A DNA stretch of 64,000 bases, from NCBI GenBank assembly GCA_003153435.1, contig PLYR01000050.1, positions 29-64,028 on the forward strand, given 5' to 3'. This stretch comes from Bacteroidota bacterium. GTDB lineage: Bacteria > Bacteroidota > Bacteroidia > Palsa-965. The position numbers and the translations under genes were made by a program. Within the stretch, counting starts at the first letter, position 1; each line of letters begins with the position of its first letter. The notes beneath the pieces are model-generated. The model made no database searches. It had not been told where the DNA came from and was given only the letters and a program-made list of their open reading frames with translations. Positions 1,750 through 50,748 of the stretch are shown piece by piece.

Positions 1750-3381
1750 ATGAAAAAGAAACTACTCATTATAAGTGCAGCCACCCTCCTGTTGGCCTTG
1801 GCCAACCGAAGTTTTGGACAGGCACCAAACCTCGGAACAGCAGCAAACTTTGCTCTGTTTTCTACTAATGGCGCTGTTAGCAACACTGGAATTTCTCAGA
1901 TTACCGGTAATGTTGGTACGAATAATGGTTCCAGCACTGCATTCGGTAATGTCAATGGAGTAATGCACGACATGGATGGAGTTAGTGGGAGTGCGCCGGC
2001 GTCTACAGATGTACTGTCAGCTTATAACCAGTTAAACTTTACCAAGGCTACCGTATTTCCTGCTCCTTTATTGGGTAATGGACAAGTATTAACGGCCGGA
2101 GTTGATTCGATTGCAAGTGCAGCCACTTTGAACATGGGATTAACATTGGATGGACAAGGTCATTCCAATGCAGTTTTCATTATTAAAATAACTGGATCCC
2201 TATCGACTAATGCGTCTGCTAAAGTCTATCTGATTAATCAGGCGATGGCATGTAATGTATACTGGGTGGTAGAAGGCCTTGTAAGTATGGCTTCTGGAAC
2301 GACCATGAGAGGAACAATCATCGCTAACAATGCCGCGATAAATATGGGTACAGGAGATACCTTGGAAGGCAGAGCACTTTCAATCGCTGGTGCTGTTTCC
2401 GTAAGTGGTGTCTTGGTGTATACTCCAATCGGATGTGGAAGCCCTCTATTGATGGGCCCAGCCGCACCTAATATGGGAGCAGCAGCCTGTTATGCAATAT
2501 TTTCAAGTGGTGGAGCAGTGACCAATACAGGTATAACAAATGTTACTGGTGATGTTGGTACTAACACAGGAGCCTGCACGGGCTTCAGCGCTTCAAATGT
2601 TACGGGTACGATTCATCCGGGTCCTGATGGGTCAACTGCACAATGTGCTTCAGATCTGTTGACCGCATATAATTACCTGCACACACTACCTGTTGATATT
2701 GAATTGTTATATCCTGCTCAGTTAGGAAACAATCTGGTTCTCACACCACATACCTACTACATGGGTGGAGCCGCAACACTTACCGATACTCTGATCCTGA
2801 ATGCAGAAGGAAGTGCAAATGCAGTTTTTGTTCTTCTGATTAATGGAGCACTTACCACCAGTACCTATGCCAAGGTCAAACTAATTAATGGAGCATTGGC
2901 AAAAAATGTTTATTGGGTAATGGAGGGCGCTGTAACTATCAATAATTATTCCATCATTAATGGAACACTTATTTCCCACAGTGGTGCGTTAGGTGCAGTG
3001 AATACGGGAGTTGTTCTTAATGGACAAGCGTTGACCACTGGAGGCGCAGTTACGACTGATGCAATAACTGCCGGAGCGCCAAGTATACCTGGGAATTGTA
3101 CCACCGTTGGAATCCATGAATCTAATCCGGCCAATACAGCAGCTGCAAATATTTTCCCTAATCCTTTCAACGGGGTTGCAACAATTGTACTTCAAAACAA
3201 CTTGTCGTTCGAAGGAACAGAATTCAAATTGTACAATGTAATGGGTGAGGAAGTAATGAATATTCTTCTTACTAATCAATCCACAACCCTGAACATGAGC
3301 CAGATGCCGAAAGGGATTTATTTCTATGAACTCATCAATCAAGCTAGAAAAGTTCAAACTGGTAAATTGATTTCCCAGTAA
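1750..3381 (+). CDS. T9SS-secreted protein with two tandem ice-binding-like (DUF3494) domains
   Basis: Signal peptide. Two internally repeated ~200-aa modules begin APNLGTAANFALFSTNGAVSNTGISQITGNVGTNNGS and APNMGAAACYAIFSSGGAVTNTGITNVTGDVGTNTGA, matching the DUF3494/IBP beta-helix N-terminal consensus. C-terminal ~80 aa (IFPNPFNG...KLYNVMGEEV...GIYFYEL) resembles a type IX secretion sorting domain. Confidence 0.75.
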   Translation: MKKKLLIISAATLLLALANRSFGQAPNLGTAANFALFSTNGAVSNTGISQITGNVGTNNGSSTAFGNVNGVMHDMDGVSGSAPASTDVLSAYNQLNFTKATVFPAPLLGNGQVLTAGVDSIASAATLNMGLTLDGQGHSNAVFIIKITGSLSTNASAKVYLINQAMACNVYWVVEGLVSMASGTTMRGTIIANNAAINMGTGDTLEGRALSIAGAVSVSGVLVYTPIGCGSPLLMGPAAPNMGAAACYAIFSSGGAVTNTGITNVTGDVGTNTGACTGFSASNVTGTIHPGPDGSTAQCASDLLTAYNYLHTLPVDIELLYPAQLGNNLVLTPHTYYMGGAATLTDTLILNAEGSANAVFVLLINGALTTSTYAKVKLINGALAKNVYWVMEGAVTINNYSIINGTLISHSGALGAVNTGVVLNGQALTTGGAVTTDAITAGAPSIPGNCTTVGIHESNPANTAAANIFPNPFNGVATIVLQNNLSFEGTEFKLYNVMGEEVMNILLTNQSTTLNMSQMPKGIYFYELINQARKVQTGKLISQ

Positions 3382-7160: not shown

Positions 7161-9104
7161 TTATACTAATCTGGCTAACTTGCCATCGATTTCTTTTCCA
7201 ATAACGGCTGCAAAATCTGAAAGACTCATAGACCCTGCATCTCCATCACCTTGCTTTCTGACTGAAACCGTTTGATCCTCTTCCTCTTTTTCTCCTACAA
7301 TTAACATGTAAGGGATCTTTTTCACCTCAGTATCTCTGATTTTTCGGCCGATTTTCTCGTTCCGATCGTCAATAAGCCCGCGAATATCGTAATTATTTAG
7401 CAAATCCAAAACTTTTTTCGCGTAATCGTTGTATTTCTCACTGATTGGAAGTACCATAACTTGCTCAGGAGTAAGCCATAAAGGGAATTTTCCAGCACAA
7501 TGTTCGATCAACACAGCCACAAATCGCTCCAATGACCCGAATGGAGCCCGGTGTATCATGACCGGCCTATGTTTCTGATTATCACTACCAGTATATTCCA
7601 GTTCAAAGCGCTCCGGAAGGTTATAATCCACCTGAATTGTCCCTAACTGCCACTTCCTTCCTATAGCGTCTTTAACCATGAAATCGAGTTTTGGACCATA
7701 GAAGGCTGCTTCCCCAAGGACCGTAGTCGTTTTCAACCCTTTTTCTTTGGCAGAAGCGATAATCGCATCTTCTGCTTTTTTCCAGTTTTCATCACTTCCG
7801 ATGTATTTTGTCGTATTAGAAGGATCCCGGAGTGAGATTTGAGCCGTATAATCATTGAAATCGAGTGCTTTAAACACGTACAAAACAAGGTCTATGACCT
7901 TGCAGAATTCTTCTTCAATCTGGTCAGGTCTGCAGAAAAGATGGGCATCATCTTGAGTAAATCCTCTTACCCGGGTTAGGCCATGGAGTTCCCCATGCTG
8001 TTCATACCGGTAAACGGTACCGAATTCTGCCAAACGGATAGGCAGATCTTTATACGACCGGGGTTTGCTTTTATAAATCTCACAGTGGTGCGGGCAATTC
8101 ATCGGTTTAAGGAAAAATTCTTCACCTTCCTGTGGGGTCTTAATAGGTTGAAATGCATCTGCTCCGTACTTTTCGTAATGGCCTGACGTGACATAGAGCT
8201 GTTTATGACCAATATGAGGGGTGACAACAGGTAGATAACCAGATTTTATCTGAGCCTTTTGCATAAACTGGATCAGTCTTTCACGCAAGGCAGCCCCAGC
8301 CGGAAGCCATAGAGGTAATCCCATTCCAACTTTCTCAGAAAAACAAAACAGCTCTAATTCTTTTCCGAGCTTACGATGGTCTCGCTTTTTGGCTTCTTCG
8401 AGTAGTATTAGATATTCTTTGAGTTCTTTTTCCTTAGGAAAAGTGATCGCGTAAATACGGGTCAGTTGTTTATTCTTTTCATCACCTCTCCAATAAGCTC
8501 CGGCAATGCTCATGACCTTGGCTGCCTTAATAAAACCGGTGCTTGGAATATGAGGGCCACGGCATAAATCAGTAAATTTTCCTTGTTCATAGAAGGTAAT
8601 CGTCCCGTCGTTCAGATCTTTCAACAAATCGAGTTTATATTCATCCTTCTTTTCTGTGAAATAGGAAATAGCATCACTCTTGGAAACATCTTTCCTGATA
8701 TATGGGTTGTTTTGACGGGCTAACTCAATTATTTTGTCTTCAATTTTTTTGAAGTCTTCCGGGTTCAGTTGCGAACCTCCCAAATCAACATCGTAATAGA
8801 ACCCATTCTCAATTGGCGGACCAATACCGAATTTGATGCCCGGATATAGTGCTTCCAGTGCTTCTGCCAGGAGGTGAGCTGAAGAATGCCAGAGTGTAGA
8901 TTTGCCCAGTTCGTCATTCCAGGTCAGGAGATTAACACTGCTGTCCTGAAGAATCGGACGGGTAGCATCCCATACTTCTCCGTTAACTTTTGAGGCTAAA
9001 ACATTTCGTGCAAGGCCTTCACTTATACTCAGTGCAACTTGGAGAGAGGTTGTTCCTTTAGGGTATTCGCGCTGGGAACCATCGGGTAGAGTTATTTTTA
9101 TCAT
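7161..9104 (-). CDS. thrS: threonine--tRNA ligase
   Basis: 647 aa with a TGS-like N-terminus ([19 protein letters not shown]), class II aaRS core and a C-terminal anticodon-binding domain. Conserved thrS-infC-rpmI-rplT order. Confidence 0.95.
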
Positions 9105-9215
9105 AGCAGTTTCCTATTTACAACATAGGGTAGGTTAGTTTCGATGCGAAGATAGAGAAAAAGTTGCTTTGTAGCAGGCCTTTGCCTTCCAGGAAGGAAG
9201 AAGAGGGACTTAAAT

Positions 9216-9249
9216 AAAGATCCCGTTTCAGATTTGAAACGGGATCTTT
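9216..9249. terminator. perfect 15-bp-stem hairpin (bidirectional terminator candidate)
   Basis: aaagatcccgtttca-gatt-tgaaacgggatcttt, 50 nt downstream of the minus-strand gene ending at 9299 and upstream of the thrS promoter region. Confidence 0.55.
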
Positions 9250-9298
9250 ACCGATAAAATATTCTTAATCAAGAACAGCGCCGACAACAGCTATCAGT

Positions 9299-9748
9299 TC
9301 ACTTATATCCGATAAGTAATACCATACACCCGATCTTCCCGTTATCACCTTCTGTTGCAGGTGGGACTTCATATTCGATATAGTAGGTCCCTGTTTTGCT
9401 AGGCTCAAAGCTCCAGAACAGGTTATCAATACCGTTTGCGCTATCATACACCTTCTGACGCTTGGGATTGTTCTTATTCTTATCATAAATATTGACTTTC
9501 ACCTCTTCTTTAAATCCACTCGTTGCAAAAACCAGTTTGTAAGACTGGCCTGCATAGGCAGTAAATTCAACAGATATGGTCTGAGCTTTATCTTTAAATG
9601 TAAAAGAATTGTCTGCAAATCCATCATAACTGAATGGTTTGAGGTTGCTTTTGCATTTTTTTGCAATTTCTTTAGCATTACATTGTGCATGCAGATTACC
9701 CAGCAGGGATCCGGCAAACAAGAGGAGCATAGTAATTTTCTTTTTCAT
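9299..9748 (-). CDS. small exported protein, paralog of 9759..10220
   Basis: Start moved to the internal MKKKITMLLLFAGSLLGNLHA signal peptide, which removes the overlap with the upstream gene. Conserved C-terminus ...GKIGCMVLLIGYK shared with the neighbour. Confidence 0.5.
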   Translation of the reverse strand: MKKKITMLLLFAGSLLGNLHAQCNAKEIAKKCKSNLKPFSYDGFADNSFTFKDKAQTISVEFTAYAGQSYKLVFATSGFKEEVKVNIYDKNKNNPKRQKVYDSANGIDNLFWSFEPSKTGTYYIEYEVPPATEGDNGKIGCMVLLIGYK

Positions 9749-9758
9749 AGTCAATCGT

Positions 9759-10220
9759 TTATTTATACCCGAGCATGAATAATATGCATCCGGGAACTGC
9801 AGTAGAATCTGTCGGGGGAATTGAATAGTCAACAAAGACTTTCATCGAATGTGTGTGTTCAAATATATGTTCTTTCAATGTAGCAGGATCATCTTTGCTC
9901 GTCCACAAGAGCTTCCGGTTCCTGGCTTCTTTGTCCTTATTATAAACGTTAATAATGACAGGTTTAGTGATCGTCTCCGTATTAAACACAAAGCGGTATT
10001 TTTCACCAAGGAATAGGGGTACTTCCACTTCCTTCAGAGACTCTTTAACCTTATAGGCAATCTTTGTCATCTTGGCTGAATCGTATTTATACGGATCCAT
10101 TGTCTTGCGTGCTTTTTCTTTCAGGCTTTTTGAATCACAAACAGGCTCGTCGCTTGTTTGAAACCCACAGCAAAGTGTAAAAAGTATAAAGCTTATCAAG
10201 CCGATTAAGGTTTTGTGCAT
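9759..10220 (-). CDS. small exported protein/lipoprotein, paralog of 9299..9748
   Basis: Signal peptide MHKTLIGLISFILFTLCCG. Alignable to its neighbour across ~110 aa (P[FY]xYD...VFxT...VxINVYxKxK...) with C-terminus ...VPGCILFMLGYK. Confidence 0.5.
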   Translation of the reverse strand: MHKTLIGLISFILFTLCCGFQTSDEPVCDSKSLKEKARKTMDPYKYDSAKMTKIAYKVKESLKEVEVPLFLGEKYRFVFNTETITKPVIINVYNKDKEARNRKLLWTSKDDPATLKEHIFEHTHSMKVFVDYSIPPTDSTAVPGCILFMLGYK

Positions 10221-10228
10221 GCCGGATT

Positions 10229-11125
10229 TTATCCTTTTACAATAGAGGCCCTGATTTCGTCAATCTTGGCAGTAAGCTTGGTCAGTTCCTCTTTGCTGAT
10301 CTGAATCTTGTTGTAATCAATATCGTCCGGGGTATTCGCGAGAGCTTTGATTTCTGCAAAATCCTTGTATACATCACAGATTGAAGTGATGTTTCCAATC
10401 ACAGCAGTAATTCCAGCATCTTTCTTCTCACTTGCTTTCAGTGCTTTCACAATATTTCCGGCAATGGCCATCTGTTCTACTAGGCGCATAGCCACATTCT
10501 TTTCCTTGCCCTTTTCATATACCTTTCCTCCAATGTACATACTTTCAATCCAGGCTCCTGCAAAAACTGTTGCAGAAATATATTCTTGTTCATGTTCTTC
10601 TAGGATCATGTCTGTTTGCATCTGCATCTCTGCGATGATCCCTCCAAGGGAGTCTTCATTACTTAGGTTTTTTTCGAAACGATTTGCAAGGTTGTCGGTT
10701 TCAAATACTTTTTCAAGACCGAGTTGAGAAGCCAGGTCGCGGGAAGCCTTCATATAATTCTTGGAATCCTGTCCCTGCTTATTGAGTGCGCAGTAACTGA
10801 GATCGGCACTGTAAATACCCAGATTCAATGCCTGGCTGATCTTTCCGGAACTGTATTTCGAAGCATTCTCAGGTTGATTACAAATATTCGGAAAATAGCT
10901 TAGTCCTGCTTTTTTAAATATAGAAGCAATCTGAAGCGGGGAGGGCAGAGTAAATGTAGTTGGCTCTTCTTTTTGCACAACGGTCTTTGAATTGGCCGAA
11001 GTATCCTTGGCTTGAGAAGTAGTTTCCTGATCGGTGCTAGAGCTTGATCCGCAGGAGAAAAAGGAAAGGCAAACAACCGCTGCGAGGAGACTGTTCAAAT
11101 GTGAAGCAACCTTATTCAAATACAT
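10229..11125 (-). CDS. hypothetical lipoprotein (paralog of 20187..21044)
   Basis: Signal peptide plus lipobox LSFFSCGSS. Shares blocks LGIYSADLSY / AGAWIESMYI / EELTKLTAKIDEIRASI with the protein at 20187..21044 (LGVYGADLTY / CGGWIESLYL / EVQKISAEVKELRTRIT). Confidence 0.55.
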   Translation of the reverse strand: MYLNKVASHLNSLLAAVVCLSFFSCGSSSSTDQETTSQAKDTSANSKTVVQKEEPTTFTLPSPLQIASIFKKAGLSYFPNICNQPENASKYSSGKISQALNLGIYSADLSYCALNKQGQDSKNYMKASRDLASQLGLEKVFETDNLANRFEKNLSNEDSLGGIIAEMQMQTDMILEEHEQEYISATVFAGAWIESMYIGGKVYEKGKEKNVAMRLVEQMAIAGNIVKALKASEKKDAGITAVIGNITSICDVYKDFAEIKALANTPDDIDYNKIQISKEELTKLTAKIDEIRASIVKG

Positions 11126-11323
11126 ATGTTTGTCTTGTTTAATGGTTAATTTATCAGAAATTCTGCAGATGATTTTCGGCTAAGCTATAACTTTTTTTTG
11201 AATGACATACTCGGGAAGAAAGATTTTGACAGATTGAATAGAGATTCTCAGCCTGTCATTACTTAAGCTTTGATGCATTAAACGCAAAATAAGTCTTTTG
11301 TTTTCGTAATAGAAAAGTTTAAC

Positions 11324-11357: not shown

Positions 11358-13556
11358 ATGAAACACACCATTTTTAGTACTGCACTGGTAGCAGCAGCCT
11401 TTATCAGTGCCTCTTTGGCTTTCGCTCAGGGTATGGACAAAAATGCGGGTAACGGGAAAAAGGATGCTTCCCAGCATAACGCAGCGTCTGAGAAAAAGAA
11501 TTTAACCGACGGAACCTCCAGCGGAACAGATGATCCGATCCTTATGTCTATTGGGAACACCAATGTAACCCTTTCTGAATTTGAAAGCGTGTATACCAAG
11601 AATCGGGTGAAGGATGAGTCATCCAAAGATCCTAAGGCTCTTGACAACTATGTTGAACTTTTTGTGACCTTTAAAATGAAAGTGAAAGAGGCCGAAGAAA
11701 TGGGTCTTGATACTTCCGCTTCATTCAGGAATGAACTTAGTGGATACCGTAAACAGCTTTCCGCCCCTTATCTTACAGATAAAGATGTTAATGATCAGCT
11801 TCTCAACGAAGCTTATGAGCGGATGAAATGGGATGTGCATGCAAAGCATATCCTAATCCGACTCGATGAAAATGCCTTACCTAAAGATACAATTGAGGCA
11901 TATGAAAGGGCTATGATTGTTAGAAATCTCCTGATAGGGAAGCAGGTTTCACCCTCCATGCTTTCAGAATATGAGGCCATGGTGAGAAAACACATGGATG
12001 CAAAAAACCCAACCTCAAAGGATGGTGAAGAGGAAAAACGGATTGCTGCTATTAAAAACCTCGCAAAGACAATTGCTGGAGTTAAGGGTGAAGAAAAATT
12101 TGCAGTGTCTGCAAAAGCTGTATCGGACGACCCTTCTGCAAAAGACAATGGTGGCGACCTAGGATACTTTTCCTCCATGCAGATGGTTTATCCATTCGAA
12201 TGTGCGGCTTACAACACCAAGCCAGGAGAGATTTCCATGCCAGTCCGTACGAAATTTGGATATCATTTGGTAAAAGTTGAAGACAAACGCCCAGCCAGAG
12301 GAGAAATTCAAGTGGCTCATATCATGATCAATGCCAAAGCTGGATTACCAGCACAGGATTCGATCAACGCAAAAAATAAGATTGATGAAATTTATGCCAA
12401 GCTGGAAAAAGGTGAAAAATTCGAAGATCTTGCAAGTTCTTTCTCCGATGATAAGCAGTCGGCCCGAAAAGGTGGAGAACTGCCTTGGTTCGGAAGCTAC
12501 AAAATGCCGATTGAGTTCGAAACAGCTTCTTTCGCCCTTCAAAATAATGGAGATGTATCCATGCCAATAAAATCCCGTTTCGGCTGGCACATCATTAAAC
12601 GATTAGACCGCCGTGGAGTACCGAAATTTGATGATATCAAAAATGAACTAAAATCAAAAATTTCTAAAGACAGCCGCTCCAATAAGGGACGTGAATCGCT
12701 GATCGCGAAATTGAAGGTTGAGTATAAATTTAAAGAAACGCCCAAGTTAAAGGAAGAGTTTTTAACGGTAATGGATTCCACTTACCTTCAGGGTAAATGG
12801 AGTGCTTCCAGGGCTTCCAAACTGACCAAGACAATGTTTGTTCTCGCCAATCATAATTATACACAAGCAGACTTTGCCAAATATCTTGAAAGCCACATGA
12901 CCCGTAGGCCTAAAATTGAGCTTGCTGTGATCCTGAATGATAATTATAAGACCTGGGTCGATGAATCCATCATAAATTTCGAAGAAACTCAGCTGGATCA
13001 TAAATTCCCGGAGTTCAAAGCCCTCATGCAGGAATACCGAGATGGGATTCTGCTTTTCGATCTTATGGACAGAAAGGTTTGGTCAAAGGCTGTAAAAGAT
13101 ACTGTTGGACTGAAAGAATTTTACGAAAAAAATAAGAACAATTATATGTATGAGCAGCGCTCCGATGCTTCTGTTTTTTCTGCAGCCGATGCTAAGATTG
13201 CTGAAGAAGCCAGGAAAATGATCGAAAAAGGGAAAACAGATAAAGAGATTCTGGAAAAACTGAACAAAGAGTCTCAACTCAACCTCACTATCGATTCCAA
13301 AATTTTCAATAAAGGAGAGAACTCACAGGTTGATGCAAACTGGGCTCCTGGGTTATCACCAGTGAAGGAAGCGGAAAAGAAATTCGTATTTGTTCGGGTG
13401 AATAAAATTCTTCCACCAAGCCCTAAGACTCTTGCTGAAGCAAGAGGAGCAGCAACTTCAGACTATCAGAACTACCTTGAAAAGAGTTGGATTGAATCTC
13501 TCAAAAAGAAATACCCTGTAAACATTCACAGTGATGTGCTGGCAAAAGTCAAGTAA
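11358..13556 (+). CDS. periplasmic peptidyl-prolyl cis-trans isomerase, parvulin/SurA-like with two PPIase domains
   Basis: Signal peptide; two parvulin signatures (KFGYHLVKVEDKR, RFGWHIIKRLDRR). Confidence 0.8.
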   Translation: MKHTIFSTALVAAAFISASLAFAQGMDKNAGNGKKDASQHNAASEKKNLTDGTSSGTDDPILMSIGNTNVTLSEFESVYTKNRVKDESSKDPKALDNYVELFVTFKMKVKEAEEMGLDTSASFRNELSGYRKQLSAPYLTDKDVNDQLLNEAYERMKWDVHAKHILIRLDENALPKDTIEAYERAMIVRNLLIGKQVSPSMLSEYEAMVRKHMDAKNPTSKDGEEEKRIAAIKNLAKTIAGVKGEEKFAVSAKAVSDDPSAKDNGGDLGYFSSMQMVYPFECAAYNTKPGEISMPVRTKFGYHLVKVEDKRPARGEIQVAHIMINAKAGLPAQDSINAKNKIDEIYAKLEKGEKFEDLASSFSDDKQSARKGGELPWFGSYKMPIEFETASFALQNNGDVSMPIKSRFGWHIIKRLDRRGVPKFDDIKNELKSKISKDSRSNKGRESLIAKLKVEYKFKETPKLKEEFLTVMDSTYLQGKWSASRASKLTKTMFVLANHNYTQADFAKYLESHMTRRPKIELAVILNDNYKTWVDESIINFEETQLDHKFPEFKALMQEYRDGILLFDLMDRKVWSKAVKDTVGLKEFYEKNKNNYMYEQRSDASVFSAADAKIAEEARKMIEKGKTDKEILEKLNKESQLNLTIDSKIFNKGENSQVDANWAPGLSPVKEAEKKFVFVRVNKILPPSPKTLAEARGAATSDYQNYLEKSWIESLKKKYPVNIHSDVLAKVK

Positions 13557-25554: not shown

Positions 25555-26110
25555 AAGGATAAGGGTAATTATTGAGATATCCAGCGTGGCCTATAGACCT
25601 CGGCAGAAACTGGATTTATTTGGGAAGCAAGAACAATTCTGCTGGAACTGTTATGAGTGGTAGTTCCTTGACGAGGCTCCGATTGATGCTTATTATCAAG
25701 ATAAAGTCGGGCTACTGTAAAGCTGCCCGTATAAAACAACATTCCAAGTAAAGCCAGCTTTATTTGTAGTACGTGCCTCATTTTTGAGATTCTAAACCTT
25801 TTCTGTTTTCTTATTGTTTGAGGTCTGTAGCAACCTTACATCCCATCTCATGTGAGATTGGAATGTACGACTGAATATTCAATTCTTTGAAATTATAGTC
25901 AAATATAGTTTTTGTACGTGTTCCTACAGGTATAGTTACAAAATCATAAACCAAATCCACCGAATTATTAGCTGATATTTTAACACAGATTATCATTATT
26001 TCTTACATACCTTCCAGGAGAGACCTTGGAGAGCCTGTCCAAGTTCCAATTTCGACAAAGGAGGTGCTATTGATTACCAATTACTTATAATAATAGCTGA
26101 GTTGCCCGAG

Positions 26111-26144
26111 AAACAAGAATCCCCCCATATTATAGTATGGGGGG
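26111..26144 (-). terminator. rho-independent terminator of the mks/jet-like operon
   Basis: ccccccata-ttatag-tatgggggg is a perfect 9-bp GC-rich stem. On the minus strand it is followed by attcttgttt, 50 nt after the stop of the SMC-like gene. Confidence 0.6.
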
Positions 26145-26196
26145 ATCAAGAGTCGGGTTTTGTAAGGAAATTATGAACTCTTATGAACAAGGGCTT

Positions 26197-29100
26197 TTAC
26201 CTTGCCTCAATGAAATCATTAAGCAATTTTTTACTGTTTCGGGTCTTGAAGAAACTCATCGGTGAATAATTAATATCCTTATCCTTACCTCGGATGAGCA
26301 TGTGGAGGAACCAATCTTCATCAGTGTAGGATCCGAACGGTTTCGGAGTCATAGTGATCAATTGATATCCAAATTGTCCTGCAATCTGAGGAAAGAGATT
26401 AAAATTCAGGTCATCAATATTTGACAATTCTTCTATAATTATAAACTTAACTCCCGGACGTGTTCTATCTTTTTGAATAACAGAAAGTCGTCCGATACAA
26501 AGCAGAGCAAGGGCTGTGTATGCTTGTCCCCCGGATCCAGTATACTTAATCCCCACATCATCGAACAGACCAACTTTCAGTTCAAAATAGAATTTAGGAT
26601 TAAGAAGGTCGCTCAGTTCACAGTTCTTGATAGAGCTGAATGTTTTAGCGATGTTTACAATCAGTTTTTCAGGTGAATTCTGTGTTTTGTCAATATCTTC
26701 GATTTCAGTGAACAAGTCAGCTCCGAACTTCTGAACCTTTGCCTTTTCACGCATTTTTCGGATCCATTCTATAGTAATTTCCTTCTTTTCCAGGAATTCA
26801 ATTCTGAATTGATAGTTATTACTGATCCTGTTTTCTGTAAAGAAGAAGTTAAGCTCCGTAATAAGTTTGCGGAAGTTCTGGTACTGCCGGGCCACCTGGT
26901 CAAATACATTGAGGATAATTGTCAACTGCAGGTCACCAAATTTCTTGAGCTCCTCATTCAATTTTAGAAGTTCTGGGCCAATACCTTCCAGCCCTAGTTT
27001 ACCACAGAGCACATTCACCAGGGTCTGGAAATTGAATTTGTCTGTCTCCAGTTCCTGGTTTTTATTATCCTTTGTCTCATCAAAGGATTGGGCAATGCGA
27101 GCAAATTCATTTTCGAAATTACGGCGGTCTGTAACCGACTTTTCTGCCAGTTGAAGGATTCTTGCATTAGTATAATCTCCAAGATGTGGAAGGTCTTCCC
27201 ATTTGAGATTGGTGTCTTTTTCCAGATCATCCCGCTTCTCATCAAAGATGGCTTGCGTTTTTTCCAGTTCCAGCTTCAGTTGAGGTTCTTTTTCCTGACA
27301 GGCTTTGACTACTCCATCAATCGAAATCTGATTCCTGACAGCTGCTTCCTTTTCGGGTGCGGTTTCTTCAACCTTTCGTTCTAGTTGAGATTTCTGTGCA
27401 ATAATGTCTTCGATAGGCAGTGTTTCAAATTTGGGTTTGATCCACTCTACTTTGAAGGGCAGTTCTTCCTTAAGTTTGTTTATCTCGTATTTACATTTGT
27501 CGTTATCATCCAGGATCTGCTCAAGCTTGAGTTTGAATTCGGTCTGCTGTTGCGCAAGGCGAATTGCTTCCCTGTTAGCATTCTGATATTGACGGTCAAG
27601 TTCATCAAAGGCGCCGAGTTGTTCTTCATTCTCAATAAATGCTTCCATCACCGTTTTGTTCAGGTCCTCATCTATCTCGTAGGCTTCAATCTTTTTGCGA
27701 TTTTTATAAGCATCCGCCATATCAGCATTGTATCCTATTTCAAGAAGCTCGAGGTTCAGTTTGCGGATAAGCTTGAGCTCCTCTTCGGCATCCTTCAGGT
27801 TCTGGAGGATTTCTTTTTTGTCTTTTTCAAGTACCGTCTTAAGCTTCTTCGCATCGTCAAATTTTTGTTTGCCGACCATGGGAATCAACTCCCGAATTTC
27901 TCCGAGTATGAGCCAAAGTCCCCCATGTTTATCTGCCTCATAGCTGCTCAGAAGTTTCTGAGGATTGGTGGTGTATTTTAAGATTTCATCTTCCTTTCCT
28001 ACAGGTTTCTTGGTAGCAATATCCTTAAGGTGCATCAGAACGGATTCTTCCTCTTTGCTCAAGGGGCGTTTTTCACTTACAGCCCAATGGAATAATGAGT
28101 TTGCATTGCTTTTGTCATAAAGTTCAAGTAAGCCACTCAGTTGATCGATGGTTCGAGGCAATTCTGCAGCCTTTTCAGGATAATTCTTTAAGGCAGCAGC
28201 AAAATCACTCGCCCATTCGGAGCCTTCAAACTCGGAATAGCTTTTTATGCCTTTGAGAAGTTTCAGTTTTGCTTTGCGGTCCCGGTATTTTTCCTGTTCA
28301 CGCATTTTTTCCTGAGCAGCCTGCGCGCTCTGGTATCGTTTGAAGATGGGAGCAAGTTTTTCCAGTTCATTGACAAGGATGAAAAGTTCATTGGCTTGAG
28401 CTCTTTTTTCTTCAATCTTACGGTCACTCAGGGTAGGAATCAGGTCCTCATAGTATTTCTGCAGATGAGTGTTCACCGAAAGCAAGTCCTGATACGCCTT
28501 CAATGCATTTTCAGTGAGTATTTTTACTTCCTTTTTATTCTTGTCAAGACTTCTGACAGCTCCTTCATACCTTGTCTTGTTTTCATTGAAATGACGTTGT
28601 GCTTCAATGAAAAAATTATAGGCATGAATAGTATCTGCAGTCAGGAACTCATCTCTGGAGGCGACACTTTTGTCAAGCATCTTCTGCAGGGAGGTTAGTT
28701 TGGTTTGTTTCTGGTCCAGTTCTTTAATCAGGTCTCTGCTTGAATTATATTGCTTGATATAGTTCTCAAGTTGATCTTTTTGTTCTTCGAAAAGTGTTTT
28801 GATTTCATCATTGTCTTCGAAAAGAAAATTCTGAAGAGAGCGGGAATTTGTTACATCCAGTGTTTTGGCTCTGGAGAATGACTGAAGGATCTTCGCCAGG
28901 GCTTTCAGGTTAGTATCTTTGGTCAGGTCTATAGGCACAATGTGGTTTACGAAGAGTGTTTCGTAATAATTCATGATTTCTTCGTGCTGGAAGTAATCAT
29001 AAAGGTAAATATCAAAAGAAAGAGTGAGGTGCGCCTTTAGCTCCTTGAGTTCCATGACGGTTTTATTCGGTGCAAGGAAATCCGTAGCATGAAGAGGCCG

Positions 29101-29499
29101 GTCGAAATTTTCCAACTCCTTTTTGGAAAAATCGGAGTTCTTTTGAATGATAAAAGGCCTTACCGGGTAACGTGAGTTTTTGGGAATATAAACACCAATC
29201 GTCACGAATTTCCCTTTTGCCCTTTCAATATTGAAGAAGGCATAGGCATGGTCTACATAAGTTTTATTCAGAGGGATACCTTCAATTCTTCTTTCATTTT
29301 TATCCAGTCCTTCCGTACCTGGCTTCCATAAATCCCTTTTAGGGATCAGGATGAGTTGCATTAAGTCGGCTACAATCGATTTACCAAGGCCATTATCGCC
29401 GGTAAAATCGGTTCGAACCGGATGGAGGAGATAGTCGCAATTATTATGCTGGCGCACTCCTACGGTTGAAAGGGAATAGATCTTAGGATAATTGCTCAT
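26197..29499 (-). CDS. MukB/MksB/JetC-like SMC-family ATPase
   Basis: 1100 aa. N-terminal head with Walker A FTGDNGLGKS, then LIPK and ...IGVYIPKNSRYPVRPFIIQ, paralleling MukB GGNGAGKST...LIPD...KPFAIQ. About 700 aa of charged heptad-rich coiled coil follows. C-terminal head has the signature TGSGGQAYTALALL and a Walker-B-like KFIIIEEL. Confidence 0.8.
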   Translation of the reverse strand: MSNYPKIYSLSTVGVRQHNNCDYLLHPVRTDFTGDNGLGKSIVADLMQLILIPKRDLWKPGTEGLDKNERRIEGIPLNKTYVDHAYAFFNIERAKGKFVTIGVYIPKNSRYPVRPFIIQKNSDFSKKELENFDRPLHATDFLAPNKTVMELKELKAHLTLSFDIYLYDYFQHEEIMNYYETLFVNHIVPIDLTKDTNLKALAKILQSFSRAKTLDVTNSRSLQNFLFEDNDEIKTLFEEQKDQLENYIKQYNSSRDLIKELDQKQTKLTSLQKMLDKSVASRDEFLTADTIHAYNFFIEAQRHFNENKTRYEGAVRSLDKNKKEVKILTENALKAYQDLLSVNTHLQKYYEDLIPTLSDRKIEEKRAQANELFILVNELEKLAPIFKRYQSAQAAQEKMREQEKYRDRKAKLKLLKGIKSYSEFEGSEWASDFAAALKNYPEKAAELPRTIDQLSGLLELYDKSNANSLFHWAVSEKRPLSKEEESVLMHLKDIATKKPVGKEDEILKYTTNPQKLLSSYEADKHGGLWLILGEIRELIPMVGKQKFDDAKKLKTVLEKDKKEILQNLKDAEEELKLIRKLNLELLEIGYNADMADAYKNRKKIEAYEIDEDLNKTVMEAFIENEEQLGAFDELDRQYQNANREAIRLAQQQTEFKLKLEQILDDNDKCKYEINKLKEELPFKVEWIKPKFETLPIEDIIAQKSQLERKVEETAPEKEAAVRNQISIDGVVKACQEKEPQLKLELEKTQAIFDEKRDDLEKDTNLKWEDLPHLGDYTNARILQLAEKSVTDRRNFENEFARIAQSFDETKDNKNQELETDKFNFQTLVNVLCGKLGLEGIGPELLKLNEELKKFGDLQLTIILNVFDQVARQYQNFRKLITELNFFFTENRISNNYQFRIEFLEKKEITIEWIRKMREKAKVQKFGADLFTEIEDIDKTQNSPEKLIVNIAKTFSSIKNCELSDLLNPKFYFELKVGLFDDVGIKYTGSGGQAYTALALLCIGRLSVIQKDRTRPGVKFIIIEELSNIDDLNFNLFPQIAGQFGYQLITMTPKPFGSYTDEDWFLHMLIRGKDKDINYSPMSFFKTRNSKKLLNDFIEAR

Positions 29500-30139
29500 G
29501 GATATAATCTTCTGTTAGTTCAACTTCATTGATTTCGCGTGCATACATCTTTGCAAGACGGTCTATACTTGGCATAATTTCGAAGTGGAAGGCTTCCTGG
29601 TTTATCCAGTTAACCCATCCCATTCGCTCAAATTCGTTCAATGTACGTTCAATTTTACGTTTCACTTCGTCTTTTTCGTTAGGGGTATAGTTACGCTTGA
29701 GTTCTCCGTAGAGCAACCGCTGCCAGAGTTCTTTATGTTCCCCTTCTTCAGTAATCTGCTCGATATCATCCCAGGTCATTTCTTTTGCTTCAAAGAATTT
29801 TTCCTTAGAAGAATTCAACAGGAGGATACCGAAAACAACATGCTTGTCTTCAAGTTCCCTACACCTGTCGCGAGTGAAGCGGCCATACCCTTCTTCCGGG
29901 AAATCGAGGTAGAAATAGACATCTCTGTCGTTACTCTCCCTGCGGAGAAAACAGTTATACAGCAGCTCGTAGTAATTCTGAAGATGACCGTAGTTATCGT
30001 TTATATAATCCCATATTTTAGTATCGTAGCTGTAGTTCTGAATATGCTTTCCCTGTGTCAGGGCAAAGTTTGCTTCAGCAAAATACCGTATAGAGCTTTC
30101 TTTTCCTAGGAATTCGAAGGCTGAATTTTCATTCTCCAT
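29483..30139 (-). CDS. MukE/MksE/JetB-like small acidic subunit (putative)
   Basis: 218-aa acidic protein whose stop overlaps the SMC-like gene start by 17 nt. Position and size match MksE/JetB (DUF4194). Family not verifiable by eye. Confidence 0.45.
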   Translation of the reverse strand: MENENSAFEFLGKESSIRYFAEANFALTQGKHIQNYSYDTKIWDYINDNYGHLQNYYELLYNCFLRRESNDRDVYFYLDFPEEGYGRFTRDRCRELEDKHVVFGILLLNSSKEKFFEAKEMTWDDIEQITEEGEHKELWQRLLYGELKRNYTPNEKDEVKRKIERTLNEFERMGWVNWINQEAFHFEIMPSIDRLAKMYAREINEVELTEDYIHEQLS

Positions 30140-31434
30140 ATCGTTACGTCGTCGTTAAGGTTAAAAGTTCTTTCTTTTTCTATAATCAGATCTGCATCTG
30201 GATTTTTATTGTGTTGCTGGATGAGTCCGAAACAGACATCAATAGGGACTTCCAGATTTTGCTCAGCTGCATATATCTCGCTGAACCAGTCTTCAAATTC
30301 TATATGGCCACCAGCCTTAATCTTGACGTTGATATCTTCAATCCATTTGGAGATATGCTCTTGCCGGATGAGAACCTGCATATTTGCAGCCTCCTTTGCC
30401 ATACGCAGTTCCTCGTCTTCTGCCATTTCAATAACATCCTTGGGTATGACGTCATTGAAGTTAAGTTTAGGGACAAAACGGAATTTGCGTTTGAAATAAG
30501 GAAACACTTTCCGGTTGAATTCAGGAGGTAAGGTGATTTCACCTTCTATAGATTGCGCGGAACGGATCAGAGAGACGAGATATTTTTCTACTTTGAGTTT
30601 ATAGATCTGTTTGTAGCGTAATGAATCGTAAAGAGTTTTCAGACGCGATGAGGAGGTCTGGATCCGATCATTAATGGCGAGCACACGGCTATCAATGGTT
30701 TCGAAAAACTGTTCTATCTCCGCCCGGATCTTAAAATACCTCTCCCAGCTTTCCTTTTCCTTTAGAAAAGCAGGCTCCGCGTTCTTGATCCGGTCTAATG
30801 TATCTTGTTTGAAGTTAAGAGTCTGGGTGAGGCCCTCCGTTTGTTTTCCTATTTCGCGGAATACAAGAATGAATTTGTCGAGCAGTCCCCTTGCATTATC
30901 TACATCTGCTTTGAGTATGGATCTCAGTTCATATGTTTTCTTATCTACGAAACGCTGAAGATTTTCGATATGCCCAAGAATTCGTTTCTTGGCCGGGCCA
31001 TAGTGATTATAATACCAGTAATTCAGATTTTGGACATTGATCAGGTCCTCTTCAGTGAGAGGGAGTGTACGGCGGAATGTATAGATCAGCGGTAGATCGT
31101 CATATTGAGGCTGAACTTCATTAATTATTGCAGCGGTAAGATCTTTCGCATATACAGTGAGCTGATAGCGGTATTCACCCCCCCGTTTTGCAGTGGTATA
31201 AAAATATTGACTCAGTTTTTTGGAAATAGTCTCTTTCTGTATGCTTTTCTCCCTTCCAAGCATTTCGGCTACCTGATCAACGGTCTTCTCGAAGTCATGC
31301 TGGGAAAAGGCTTCGTCAATTTCTCCCTTTTCAATCTTATCGTTGAGTTCCATCAAAAGAATCACCGATTCCGGATTGGAAGGGAGTAATAATTCGTAAT
31401 TTCGGGTGATACTCTGGATCAGATCGCTCTCCAT
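30106..31434 (-). CDS. MukF/MksF/JetA-like kleisin subunit (putative)
   Basis: 442 aa, first gene of the operon, overlapping the next gene by 34 nt. Size and order match MksF/JetA (DUF3375). Assignment by operon context only. Confidence 0.4.
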   Translation of the reverse strand: MESDLIQSITRNYELLLPSNPESVILLMELNDKIEKGEIDEAFSQHDFEKTVDQVAEMLGREKSIQKETISKKLSQYFYTTAKRGGEYRYQLTVYAKDLTAAIINEVQPQYDDLPLIYTFRRTLPLTEEDLINVQNLNYWYYNHYGPAKKRILGHIENLQRFVDKKTYELRSILKADVDNARGLLDKFILVFREIGKQTEGLTQTLNFKQDTLDRIKNAEPAFLKEKESWERYFKIRAEIEQFFETIDSRVLAINDRIQTSSSRLKTLYDSLRYKQIYKLKVEKYLVSLIRSAQSIEGEITLPPEFNRKVFPYFKRKFRFVPKLNFNDVIPKDVIEMAEDEELRMAKEAANMQVLIRQEHISKWIEDINVKIKAGGHIEFEDWFSEIYAAEQNLEVPIDVCFGLIQQHNKNPDADLIIEKERTFNLNDDVTIWRMKIQPSNS

Positions 31435-47421: not shown

Positions 47422-50400
47422 CTATCTCACCCTCACCACCCGTTGAGTGAACGAGGTTCTGCCCATTGTTACCTTCATCATATAAACTCCTTCTCCCATA
47501 TCATGATCAGAGGTGTTCAGCTGATAACTGTATGTTCCGGCTTCCTGGCGTGGGAGAAGGCTCGAAGAAACCTCTTCTCCGAGCATATTATAAACCTGGA
47601 TCAGGATTTCTGAGGGTTCAGAAAGTGAATAAGTGACTTTTACCTGATCCCGGAAAGGATTCGGAGAAACATGAATACTGTTGCTATAAACCGCTGGAGC
47701 TGGGATCATGCCGGTAATAACAGAGCTGTCGGGGCGAATATGCATGGAATCAACCTTGTAATCGAGGTTTGGATAGCTCTGATTCGTGGTGATAGTACGC
47801 ACATACTCAGAAGTCATACCAAGACCAGGGATATCTACAAAAACCTCGAAAGTGCCGTGAGGGAGGTTAGAGAATGTATAGGTTCCATCACCTGCGGTAG
47901 TATGTTGTGCAATAATTCCTCCGGGGTGTTGTTCAAGATTTACATCCAATCCCGGAACCGGATCACCGGGTGCAAGAACAATAGGAGAAACGGTTCCTGC
48001 AGCATAACGGGCTACAAAGCCTTGTGACTGATATACTGCCCCCGACATAGTTCCGCTTCCGGAAGTTGGAGTCAGGTCGATTAGCTTGATGTTAGCTGTA
48101 TCGGCAGTGGCACAACCTGCATTCAGTACAGTGGCATTAACCCACTGGTCTGTGTTGGCATAATAAGTTTTGATTGCTCCAGGATACGTTGCATGGTCTG
48201 CAATAGCATAAACCAGGAAGTTGCCTCCAGTGGAACTGTTGAAGTGATAACGTCCGGCAGAGATGGCTGCACTATCAACCACCAATTGACGGTGAAGAAC
48301 CGTGTCATAAGAAACGAGGTAGGTCCAGCCAGCGCTTACATTGCCCGAAACAGAATCGATGACTGTTCCTGTGATAGCCGGTGAAGGAAAGCTGCCAACG
48401 GTGTAGTTTCCAGAAGTAGAACATCCATTCGCATCATTAATGGCGCAGGTATAAGTACCGGCACATACTTGAGAAGTAAGGGCTCCCGAAGGACCAGCAG
48501 GAGTCCAGGAATAGGTGTAGGCACCGGTCCCACCGGTTACTGTTGCGGAAAGAGATCCGTCACAGGCACCGCCACAGGAGGAGGTGCTGCCACTTACATT
48601 TACAGCAATCGGAGGAGGCTCAATAACACCTGAAGTATCCCAGTTCTGGCAACCGTTTCCGTCAAATACGGTACACTGGTGAATACCTTTACACATGGAA
48701 GCTAGGGTAACCGAGGTAGCTCCGTTATCCCAGGAATAGGTATAAGCACCGGTTCCACCCGTTGCACTCACACTAATTATGCCATCGCATAAACCGTTAC
48801 AGGAAATATTATGGGATGTGGTGACCACATTCAGATTTGGAGGATCTACGATAGTGAAATTCTGTGAAGCGGTACAGCCCCCCATATCCGTAACGGTGCA
48901 GGTATAGGTACCTGAAGCCAGGTTACTGGCTGTTGAACTGGTTTGTCCATTGCTCCAGGAATAGGAATATGACATTACTCCTCCTGTAACAGAAACGGTG
49001 GCACTGGCACCAACATAGCCAAAGCAAAGATTACTAGTCTGTGAAGGTGTAATAACAATAGCGGATGGAGTATAGATCGTAGTTGTTTGAGTTAAGGTAC
49101 AGCCGTTGGCATCTACCAGGTTGCAGGTATAAGTTCCCGATACTAATCCACTAGCAGAGGGTGTGGTTCCTCCGGTCGGAGACCAGCTGAAAGTCCATGG
49201 CTTGGTGCCTCCACTTGCATTCAGCACCGCAGTACCTGTTCCACTGGCACAAACAGGATTGGTGGAAGTGATAGAACCGCTAAGTGAATCGGGTTGGGTA
49301 ATTGTTACAGCCTGTGATCCAACACAGCCATTGGAACCTGTTACAAAGACAGTAAGGTTTGCGGCGATCTGCCCTGTAATGTTTGCCGTAACCGAAGTAG
49401 CAGCGTTGTTCCAGGAGTAGGTATAAGGGGTGATTCCTCCGGTAGGAGTAGCAGTGGCGGTTCCATTGGCGCCACCATAACAGGAAACATTTGTACTGGT
49501 TGCTGTAACAATCGGGGCATTGGCATTGGTGACGTGTGCGGTATCTGTGAGTATGCATCCATTAGCATCCGTAACCGTAACAGTATAAATCCCTGCTCCG
49601 ACAGAGCCCAGGAAAGCGTTGGTTTGTCCGGTTGGGTTCCAGGAGTAGTTGTATGGGGTAGTTCCTCCATTTACGGTTGCATTGGCAGAACCATAGGCCT
49701 GACCACAAGTGGCGGATGACATGGTAGCCATTGTAATAGTGATGGGGGCTGCAGGTTGTTGTATTGCAGGGTTAACAGCAACCGTACAACCGAGACTATC
49801 GGTGATCAGGCAGGTATAAGTGCCGGCAGGAAGGTTGGGACAAGAAGCAGAAGATCCAGAGGCAGGCGCTGTCCAGGAGTAAGTGTAAGGTCCGGTTCCT
49901 CCAACAGGTGATGTCCAGGCAATACCATCAGAGCCTCCAAAGCAGCTGACATTATGTGTTGGACTTTCACCGGAATTAAAAAGTTGATTGTGATCCGATA
50001 TAGTCACATTCAGCATATTACTGCAACCTAAGGAATCCGTAGTAAAACAGGTATAATTACCAGCAGTCAAGCCGGTTGGAGTAGATGAAGTACATCCAAT
50101 CACGTTCCAGGAATAAGTATAGGAACCTGAACCACCGAACGCAGTTACCGTGGCAGATCCGTTATTTCCTCCGAAACAGTTCGGAGAAACAGTGCTGGCG
50201 CTTGTGGAGAGGGGGGTGTTTTCTGTAACCGTAACCGTAGGTGTGGTTGAGCAACCATTCATGTCCTGTACCAGACAACTATAAGTGCCGGCAGCTAGAT
50301 TGGTTAATGAATCAGTGTATCCGGTACTCTGAATCCAGGAATAGCTGTAGGGGGTAGTTCCTCCTGATGGATTAGCGATGGCAATTCCGGTGGATTGTCC

Positions 50401-50748
50401 TCCGCAATTTATCTTTACACTCGTAGGGGCTGTTGTAAGTGCCGGTGGCTCAGTGATGGTTGCGGTATAGGTTCCGGTACTTGATAACATATCATGTACA
50501 GTAAGTGTATAAATGCCGGGAGCCAGTCCTGTTGCTGTTAAAGTTCCCTGACCGCCACCTGGGGCCGGACTCCAGGTATAGGAAAATGGGGGAGTGCCGC
50601 CAGTAGCTGTGCCAGTTGCAGAACCATTGGCCATGCCATTACAGGTAACCATAGTGCTCGAACCGGAAACCGTTAGTTGCGCTTTCAGTGTCTGGAATCC
50701 AGAAGTTAATAGAAGGATAAGTCCAGACAGGAGTATGGATTTTTTCAT
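47422..50748 (-). CDS. T9SS-secreted adhesin-like protein with ~10 SprB-type repeats and a C-terminal sorting domain
   Basis: Signal peptide. Repeated ~90-aa modules carry CxGxxNGSAT...GGTxPYTYSWxP...GxYTCxVTDxNGC (the SprB repeat signature). The C-terminal ~90 aa (SPNPFRDQVKVTY...IQVYNMLGEEV...GVYMMKV) resembles a type IX secretion C-terminal domain. Confidence 0.8.
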   Translation of the reverse strand: MKKSILLSGLILLLTSGFQTLKAQLTVSGSSTMVTCNGMANGSATGTATGGTPPFSYTWSPAPGGGQGTLTATGLAPGIYTLTVHDMLSSTGTYTATITEPPALTTAPTSVKINCGGQSTGIAIANPSGGTTPYSYSWIQSTGYTDSLTNLAAGTYSCLVQDMNGCSTTPTVTVTENTPLSTSASTVSPNCFGGNNGSATVTAFGGSGSYTYSWNVIGCTSSTPTGLTAGNYTCFTTDSLGCSNMLNVTISDHNQLFNSGESPTHNVSCFGGSDGIAWTSPVGGTGPYTYSWTAPASGSSASCPNLPAGTYTCLITDSLGCTVAVNPAIQQPAAPITITMATMSSATCGQAYGSANATVNGGTTPYNYSWNPTGQTNAFLGSVGAGIYTVTVTDANGCILTDTAHVTNANAPIVTATSTNVSCYGGANGTATATPTGGITPYTYSWNNAATSVTANITGQIAANLTVFVTGSNGCVGSQAVTITQPDSLSGSITSTNPVCASGTGTAVLNASGGTKPWTFSWSPTGGTTPSASGLVSGTYTCNLVDANGCTLTQTTTIYTPSAIVITPSQTSNLCFGYVGASATVSVTGGVMSYSYSWSNGQTSSTASNLASGTYTCTVTDMGGCTASQNFTIVDPPNLNVVTTSHNISCNGLCDGIISVSATGGTGAYTYSWDNGATSVTLASMCKGIHQCTVFDGNGCQNWDTSGVIEPPPIAVNVSGSTSSCGGACDGSLSATVTGGTGAYTYSWTPAGPSGALTSQVCAGTYTCAINDANGCSTSGNYTVGSFPSPAITGTVIDSVSGNVSAGWTYLVSYDTVLHRQLVVDSAAISAGRYHFNSSTGGNFLVYAIADHATYPGAIKTYYANTDQWVNATVLNAGCATADTANIKLIDLTPTSGSGTMSGAVYQSQGFVARYAAGTVSPIVLAPGDPVPGLDVNLEQHPGGIIAQHTTAGDGTYTFSNLPHGTFEVFVDIPGLGMTSEYVRTITTNQSYPNLDYKVDSMHIRPDSSVITGMIPAPAVYSNSIHVSPNPFRDQVKVTYSLSEPSEILIQVYNMLGEEVSSSLLPRQEAGTYSYQLNTSDHDMGEGVYMMKVTMGRTSFTQRVVRVR

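Follow-up and report, generated by a model that had tools for sequence, protein, structure and literature searches.

A jetD-less MksBEF-type operon of Wadjet-like ancestry in an uncultured Bacteroidota bacterium

Is a three-gene operon built around a structural maintenance of chromosomes (SMC) ATPase a second condensin or a Wadjet-type defence system when no jetD/mksG nuclease gene lies beside it? A sequence-only reading raised this question for a locus in a 64-kb stretch of DNA (hereafter the window) from an uncultured Bacteroidota bacterium (GCA_003153435.1, contig PLYR01000050.1, positions 29 to 64,028). According to the present analysis, the operon is firmly assigned to MksBEF. It is not a Wadjet system, because the defining subunit JetD is missing and the Wadjet models of PADLOC (v2.0.0) do not match. 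Of the two options, Wadjet in the proper sense is thus abandoned, while a Wadjet-like ancestry and the hallmarks of a host-fixed system were both found. The reading we favour, with somewhat better than even confidence, is that of a Wadjet-derived MksBEF-type complex which has dispensed with its nuclease and serves the folding or segregation of the host chromosome.

The operon has the order F-E-B and a single terminator, and consists of the following elements:

30106..31434, minus strand: mksF/jetA-like kleisin gene, 442 aa, open reading frame (ORF) with ATG start
29483..30139, minus strand: mksE/jetB-like KITE subunit gene, 218 aa, ORF with ATG start
26197..29499, minus strand: mksB/jetC-like SMC ATPase gene, 1100 aa, ORF with ATG start
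30106..30139, minus strand: 34-nt overlap of the kleisin and KITE genes from the ORF coordinates, predicted translational coupling
29483..29499, minus strand: 17-nt overlap of the KITE and SMC genes from the ORF coordinates
26118..26147, minus strand: intrinsic-terminator-like, G+C-rich hairpin closing the operon, 12-pair stem including 6 G-C pairs, loop of 6 nt

These coordinates agree exactly with the three coupled minus-strand genes described before, and the claimed hairpin terminator was recovered at 26147-26118, 50 nt beyond the SMC stop codon, with the T-rich tail CTTGTTTCTC directly on its 3' side. The 34-nt overlap is also present in the related loci L001 and L016 and in the four-gene relatives L006, L011, and L012, while the 17-nt overlap is kept in L001-L004 and L016. 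Since the 34-nt overlap recurs in both close and distant relatives, the operon has inherited it, and it is not a product of chance. A scan for sigma-70 promoters, which does not cover Bacteroidota promoters, returned 16 matches against 13.3±3.7 expected, i.e., the chance level.

The 1100-aa protein is an SMC ATPase with a MukB-type head. Its N-terminus matched the Pfam family MukB_N (PF04310) at 29.8 bits (cut-off 23), which was the sole above-threshold Pfam match. A family profile of 40 diverse members searched against PDB retrieved, among globular domains, the MukB heads 3euj (3.4e-5) and 1qhl (1.1e-4) only, and no SbcC, Rad50, RecF, or RecN match. The proposal that this protein is MukB-like and not of the SbcC or RecF kind is upheld by these two results, and the motifs named in its favour are all present, including FTGDNGLGKS (residues 32-41), PFIIQ (residues 115-119), and GSGGQ. 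The codons of the catalytic motifs are located as follows:

29377..29400, minus strand: Walker A (GDNGLGKS, residues 34-41), core conserved in the family
26524..26538, minus strand: ABC signature (GSGGQ, residues 988-992), Ser in 137 and Gly in 134 of 139 family members
26428..26445, minus strand: Walker B (FIIIEE, residues 1019-1024), the catalytic Glu being E1024

The Walker A core G-x-x-G-x-GK-S/T is kept in 133-137 of the 139 family members and E1024 in 138, so that the catalytic motifs, as read from the sequence, are intact. The Asp preceding the catalytic Glu in Walker B is replaced by Glu (IIIEE versus the canonical hhhhDE). This EE pair is common to a whole subclade of 58 members that includes four-gene systems, whereas the basal clade of 81 members has DE, which indicates that the substitution predates nuclease loss and is not a sign of decay.

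The amino acid composition suggests the head-arm-hinge-arm-head layout usual for SMC proteins, with two Pro/Gly-poor arms (about residues 225-420 and 560-830) and, between them, a hinge where Pro and Gly are more frequent (about 420-560). By composition only, the single coiled coil of ~700 aa proposed earlier gives way to two arms around a hinge. The SMC proteins of one three-gene sublineage, L009 (10001-13864) and L014 (10107-13967), bear an acidic, low-complexity C-terminal extension of ~185 aa, which the window protein does not have.

The 218-aa protein was proposed to be a KITE subunit of the MukE/JetB kind, and the Pfam family MksE (PF21980) confirms this above its cut-off (69.6 bits against 27, E=5.3e-19, residues 19-197); the MukE models matched weakly, at 12.5 bits in Pfam (cut-off 25) and 11.7 bits in NCBIfam (cut-off 250). 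The 442-aa protein fell into no Pfam, NCBIfam, or PADLOC family and has no sequence relative in PDB, where the three proteins and a kleisin family profile, used as queries, yielded coiled-coil noise only. With the sequence families silent, its suggested resemblance to MukF/JetA found support in the fold of an AlphaFold2 model (27-sequence alignment, predicted local distance difference test (pLDDT) 76.8), in which a winged helix stands at each terminus, the first being followed by a long helical bundle and the second preceded by a disordered linker (~303-340). The best 16 PDB matches of this model in Foldseek were all MukF or JetA chains, including 9gm7_C with the lowest E-value (6.6e-7), 7nz2_C1, 3euh, 1t98, the Wadjet-II JetA 9qe0_E, and the JetA 8q72_E, and for this reason the model identifies the protein as a MukF/JetA-type kleisin. 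The template modelling scores are low (0.2-0.34) because several domains are flexibly linked.

The reported absence of a JetD/MksG partner at the locus holds. In the window, a JetD-like sequence was detected neither by tblastn nor by scanning the six-frame translations with a JetD-family profile (best E 0.59). The surroundings of eleven related three-gene loci, read over 2-10 kb, likewise gave no jetD gene or remnant with tblastn or the JetD-family hidden Markov model. Downstream of the SMC gene lies an unannotated stretch of 640 bp (25555-26196) with no ORF longer than 70 aa, and the ~560 bp past the terminator (25555-26117) have no Rfam match. The region of L016 matching 25555-26117 carries a gene call of 98 aa with a relative in L007. 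A substitute partner or effector gene conserved across the three-gene sublineages was sought and not found. None of the three window proteins matched JetA, JetB, or JetC of PADLOC at E<=1; the PADLOC matches to BrxA (E=1.2e-3) and TrlF (E=2.5e-3) lie far under any cut-off and were disregarded. Models of Smc, ScpA, and ScpB had no match in the three proteins or in the 30 other window ORFs scanned.

The family to which this SMC protein belongs is small and isolated. An exhaustive phmmer search with the window SMC against 1.84 billion representative proteins returned 304 hits (clusters) at E<=1e-3, and the relatives are of two kinds, with three or four genes, the latter making up most of the lineages sampled. 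Metagenome-assembled genomes with the three-gene form are JABDAO01, JBIOHC01, PLXK01, JABDCB01, DASYGQ01, JACRAL01, SCSP01, JAHEYJ01, and GCA_016853205.1. An additional, fourth gene of 281-332 aa is present in L006, L010-L012, L015, L017, L018, L020, and L021, where it either overlaps the 3' end of the SMC gene or lies immediately next to it. L006 is a Bacteroidales chromosome, L010 a metagenome-assembled genome of Dysgonamonadaceae, L011 belongs to Cytophagales, and L012 is the isolate Flavisolibacter nicotianae (GCA_003628535.1). The four-gene loci have the following positions:

L006:8009-14180, L011:8057-14171, L012:4737-10849, and L015:4048-10232
L017:3985-10151, L018:4056-10219, L020:213-6406, and L021:411-4752

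The fourth protein, ~282 aa in the nearest relatives versus 365-374 aa in the solved JetD/MksG chains, forms a family of at least 151 clusters with no Pfam domain. Its AlphaFold2 model (pLDDT 89) is best matched by MksG of C. glutamicum (8b7f, 6.4e-6) and JetD of P. aeruginosa (7til, 2.4e-5), and also matches topoisomerase VI-A (1d3y); the Glu and DxD motifs of the Toprim domain (ILCEN...CDWD) do not vary. Because the fourth protein matches the MksG/JetD fold and keeps the Toprim motifs, the four-gene relatives are true Wadjet/MksBEFG-type systems. PADLOC gave no match or sub-threshold matches on them, the only weak ones being in the deep outgroup L017 (JetC1 2.2e-7, JetB1 3.9e-3, JetD1 1.8e-5), and Pfam recognises MksE alone. 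This four-gene family, mostly from Bacteroidota and with one member in a cultured strain, may be an undescribed Wadjet type. The SMC gene of L010 is broken up, with one ORF at 10001-11236 and another at 11464-13311, which reflects a pseudogene or an assembly error.

The relation between the two kinds of operon was examined with a neighbour-joining tree of the SMC protein (139 full-length members, 905 columns), with 200 bootstraps on 34 taxa. The three-gene clade of the window (window, L001, L002, L013, L009, L014, and P0182) is monophyletic in 200/200 bootstraps and nests with the four-gene groups L015/P0184 and L006/L011/L012 in 199/200, and the two four-gene groups never form a clade that leaves out the window clade (0/200). 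A second three-gene lineage without JetD, L019 (4042-9408), which also lies in a housekeeping context, groups with its four-gene sister L020 in 200/200 bootstraps and with the window clade in 0/200. The deeper branches, namely L020, L021, the L017 clade, and the L018 clade, all have four genes. SMC identity between three-gene and four-gene relatives is 39-44 %. JetD similarity among the four-gene lineages broadly falls as SMC distance grows, which argues against repeated gain of jetD. The parsimonious reading of these sequence data is a four-gene ancestor followed by at least two independent losses of jetD.

Each loss went together with a shift from defence-island or mobile-element to housekeeping neighbourhoods. 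Six of the nine four-gene relatives adjoin restriction, helicase/PLD, or mobile-element genes, among them McrA-like/HNH and SRA-HNH genes in L012, a group II intron reverse transcriptase and DUF1016 in L015, helicase, nSTAND, and PLD genes in L017, and methyltransferase, transposase, or recombinase genes in L006 and L011. The neighbours of the window operon are all housekeeping genes, which encode CdaA, thioredoxin, an M42 peptidase, an OmpA/PD40 protein, a methyltransferase of the MnmC type, a DEAD-box helicase, LptF/G, ThrRS, HtpG, Nth, and shikimate kinase. The other three-gene sublineages have housekeeping neighbours as well: L014 lies with dapF, sigma-70, and ribosomal protein genes, L013 with gyrB and trehalose synthesis genes, and L019 with FeoAB, Skp, and Lon. 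Searches of the plasmid and phage collections returned no member of the family. In L013 (1-13510), a gyrB-like gene, a gene with a DNA_topoisoIV domain, and a Y1 transposase gene stand ~4 kb from the operon. MukB is linked to topoisomerase IV in E. coli, which makes these type II topoisomerase genes intriguing neighbours, although their nearness may be a coincidence.

A recent insertion of the window operon was considered and rejected. Its GC content (0.408-0.418) and third-codon-position GC (0.433-0.457) lie inside the range of the other window genes (0.425±0.021 and 0.428±0.040, respectively), as does its codon usage, and no integrase, transposase, flanking tRNA, or repeat boundary was found at the operon. 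L002 and L016, which are ~90 % identical, share the gene order around it. The two comparisons suggested by the sequence-only reading, of flanking synteny and of base composition, therefore both speak for a resident operon. In L016, ~89 % identical, the operon is separated from the mnmC-like gene by an additional gene of 588 aa (8018-9784), which the window does not have; the region upstream of the operon thus carries an insertion/deletion polymorphism.

The operon is under strong purifying selection in its core-genome setting. As synonymous sites are saturated, a ratio of nonsynonymous to synonymous substitution rates (dN and dS) was not computable, and sequence identity was instead compared for each codon position and for four-fold degenerate sites. 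Against L002 and L016, identity is 0.31-0.42 at four-fold degenerate sites but 0.91-0.98 at codon positions 1 and 2, and the proteins remain 88-96 % identical among relatives despite the saturation. The dN of the three operon genes (0.03-0.08) is lower than that of the flanking M42 peptidase, CdaA, TPR, and MnmC-like genes (0.09-0.42). Three intact frames are present in the six species-level relatives with complete copies (L001-L004, L009, and L013), and intact operons occur in four further metagenome contigs (L014, L016, L019; P0029/P0001/P0188 look-ups). L005, L007, and L008 have a partial SMC gene or gave no single intact ATG-started SMC ORF in the scan.

Based on these results, a course of events can be proposed. 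An ancestral, Bacteroidota-specific four-gene JetABCD/MksBEFG lineage would have lost the Toprim nuclease gene jetD/mksG. The products left behind, a dimer of the MukB-headed SMC ATPase, the MukF/JetA-type kleisin, and the MksE KITE protein, would assemble as one complex, and the N-terminal winged-helix domain of the kleisin would probably dimerise to give a dimer of SMC dimers, as judged from MukBEF and JetABC structures (PMC10586767). Without JetD no DNA cleavage could follow. The activity that remains would presumably be ATP-driven DNA loading and loop extrusion, and it may be used for chromosome folding or segregation, as in P. aeruginosa MksBEF and MukBEF. A role in chromosome organisation is thus what we infer from the ancestry, the setting, and the conservation of the operon.

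Several points weigh against this proposal. Competence for ATP hydrolysis is predicted from motifs, in a protein whose Asp-to-Glu substitution in Walker B is unusual. The absence of jetD covers 64 kb of the host genome, and a jetD-like gene may lie elsewhere in it. The SMC tree is distance-based, drawn from one protein, and midpoint-rooted, and the relatives were ascertained by having the operon, so that they do not give the fraction of carriers among related species. Moreover, the site of the operon varies among the sublineages of the three-gene clade (mnmC/ompA, dapF, and trehalose/gyrB), which fits old vertical descent with rearrangement, but also transfer.

Such a genome-encoded nuclease is one form of a different explanation, namely that the operon still defends the cell against plasmids or other extrachromosomal DNA, either as a JetABC-like sensor working with a nuclease encoded elsewhere, or by compaction, silencing, or mis-segregation that involves no cleavage. 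We regard this as possible but doubtful. The nearest relatives are Wadjet-like four-gene systems, the three sensor and motor subunits are intact and under selection, and Smc5/6, which acts on viral episomes, provides a precedent for SMC-based restriction independent of cleavage (PMC10586767). However, jetD overlaps or abuts the SMC gene in every four-gene relative examined, which indicates a unit normally inherited together, and the Wadjet systems tested so far need all four subunits for restriction (PMC10586767). The core-genome context with no defence island and the lack of an alternative partner gene conserved across the three-gene sublineages also disagree with a defence role, and so does the evolution of the operon proteins, which is slower than that of their housekeeping neighbours, unlike that of typical defence genes. 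It is highly improbable that the operon is a canonical Wadjet with an unrecognised neighbouring effector or a small ORF in the downstream gap. The featureless 640 bp would leave room for it, but the terminator stands directly after the SMC gene, the flanks are an OmpA/PD40 protein gene and an MnmC-type methyltransferase gene, the gap is devoid of Rfam matches, and the downstream genes are wholly different between three-gene sublineages.

A defence remnant decaying without current function could be suspected from the lost effector gene and from the split SMC gene of L010. The selection analysis effectively refutes it, given that the frames are intact in relatives and the proteins conserved over saturated synonymous sites, and the catalytic motifs and coupling overlaps have been kept as well. 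Least credible of all is a repair ATPase of the SbcC/Rad50/RecN type accompanied by two unrelated small genes. The SMC cluster bears the name 'exonuclease SbcC' in the automatic JGI/IMG annotation ('hypothetical protein' in NCBI), and a sub-threshold match to the AAA_29 P-loop family points the same way. Against this stand the MukB-only matches of the SMC protein in Pfam and PDB, the nature of its partners, a kleisin of MukF/JetA fold and an MksE KITE protein, and the absence of an SbcD/Mre11 gene among the neighbours. None of our tests backs the JGI/IMG label, and we set it aside.

The preferred reading of a nuclease-free MksBEF-type complex is in line with what is known of Mks systems. In the sense of Petrushenko et al. 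(2011), MksBEF is recognised by the MukB-type head, the MksE KITE subunit, the MukF/MksF-type kleisin, and the F-E-B order, all of which are found here. P. aeruginosa MksBEF (PA4686-PA4684) and the mycobacterial three-gene MksB likewise combine a MukF-like kleisin, MksE, and a MukB-like SMC with no MksG/JetD, and they are also chromosomal, with a KITE subunit in the same Pfam family as that of the window (PF21980). However, the window kleisin has no detectable sequence similarity to theirs and the SMC similarity is marginal. The window operon comes from another phylum, and as its four-gene sisters can still be identified, its loss of the nuclease has a position in the phylogeny. P. aeruginosa MksBEF is supported by Hi-C and genetic evidence, whereas the window operon is known from sequence.

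Wadjet systems (JetABCD/MksBEFG/EptABCD, types I-III) share the kleisin-KITE-SMC order, and the fold of the window kleisin matches JetA, as noted above for 9qe0_E and 8q72_E. The immediate relatives of the window operon have the fourth Toprim gene of JetD/MksG fold, in a form shorter than Wadjet JetD, while the window operon has none; it also differs in escaping the PADLOC JetA/B/C models and in its core-genome context.

MukBEF of E. coli and other gamma-proteobacteria is a nuclease-free chromosomal complex of three subunits with the same gene order (mukF-mukE-mukB), and it supplies the chains that come closest to the kleisin in structure (MukF) and to the SMC head in PDB sequence searches (MukB). 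Nevertheless, the operon is not MukBEF in the strict sense: the MukE models are weak and below cut-off, and NCBIfam MukB and MukF do not match. At 1100 aa the window SMC is much shorter than E. coli MukB, which has ~1486 aa, and there is no evidence in the window system for partners such as MatP or for an interaction with topoisomerase IV. Smc-ScpAB has a similar general SMC-kleisin-KITE architecture and is likewise a presumed loop-extruding ATPase, but its models do not match, and the window kleisin belongs with MukF/JetA, having its dimerisation domain at the N-terminus, while the head is of the MukB type. From SbcCD and Rad50-Mre11 the operon is separated by the lack of an SbcC/Rad50 head match, in Pfam as well as with the PDB profile, and of an SbcD-like neighbour.

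In reviews of SMC biology, MukBEF and MksBEF were proposed to descend from Wadjet-like defence systems by nuclease loss, and P. aeruginosa MksBEF was suggested to have arisen via loss of JetD (PMC10586767). This idea has so far rested on distant comparisons. In the family described here, the armed four-gene and the disarmed three-gene versions are close relatives, and they offer natural matched pairs for asking what changes when an SMC-based immune sensor turns into a chromosome organiser. Three-gene MksBEF without MksG is already known, and the window operon is a very divergent addition to it; what is new is a previously unrecognised, Bacteroidota-centred Wadjet-like family, with repeated nuclease loss resolved on the tree and a shift of neighbourhood that goes with each loss. 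A literature search found no paper describing this family, and PADLOC v2.0.0 misses it, including the member in cultured Flavisolibacter nicotianae. Some Bacteroidetes have been reported to yield no known condensin (PMC10197239), and the window operon and its family are relevant to such bacteria. We might speculate, although we consider it rather unlikely, that the disarmed Wadjet-type motor is the main or only chromosome condensin here, an independent replay, at least twice within this small protein family, of the origin from a defence system that has been proposed for MukBEF/MksBEF.

Finally, two genes elsewhere in the window touch on the lifestyle of the host. One (1750-3381) encodes an ice-binding-like protein with a C-terminal tail for type IX secretion, and the other (47422-50748) encodes a type IX secretion protein of 1108 aa with SprB repeats and lies where the DNA is locally G+C-rich (0.49 versus ~0.42). 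Both proteins fit a gliding member of Bacteroidota from cold soil or permafrost.

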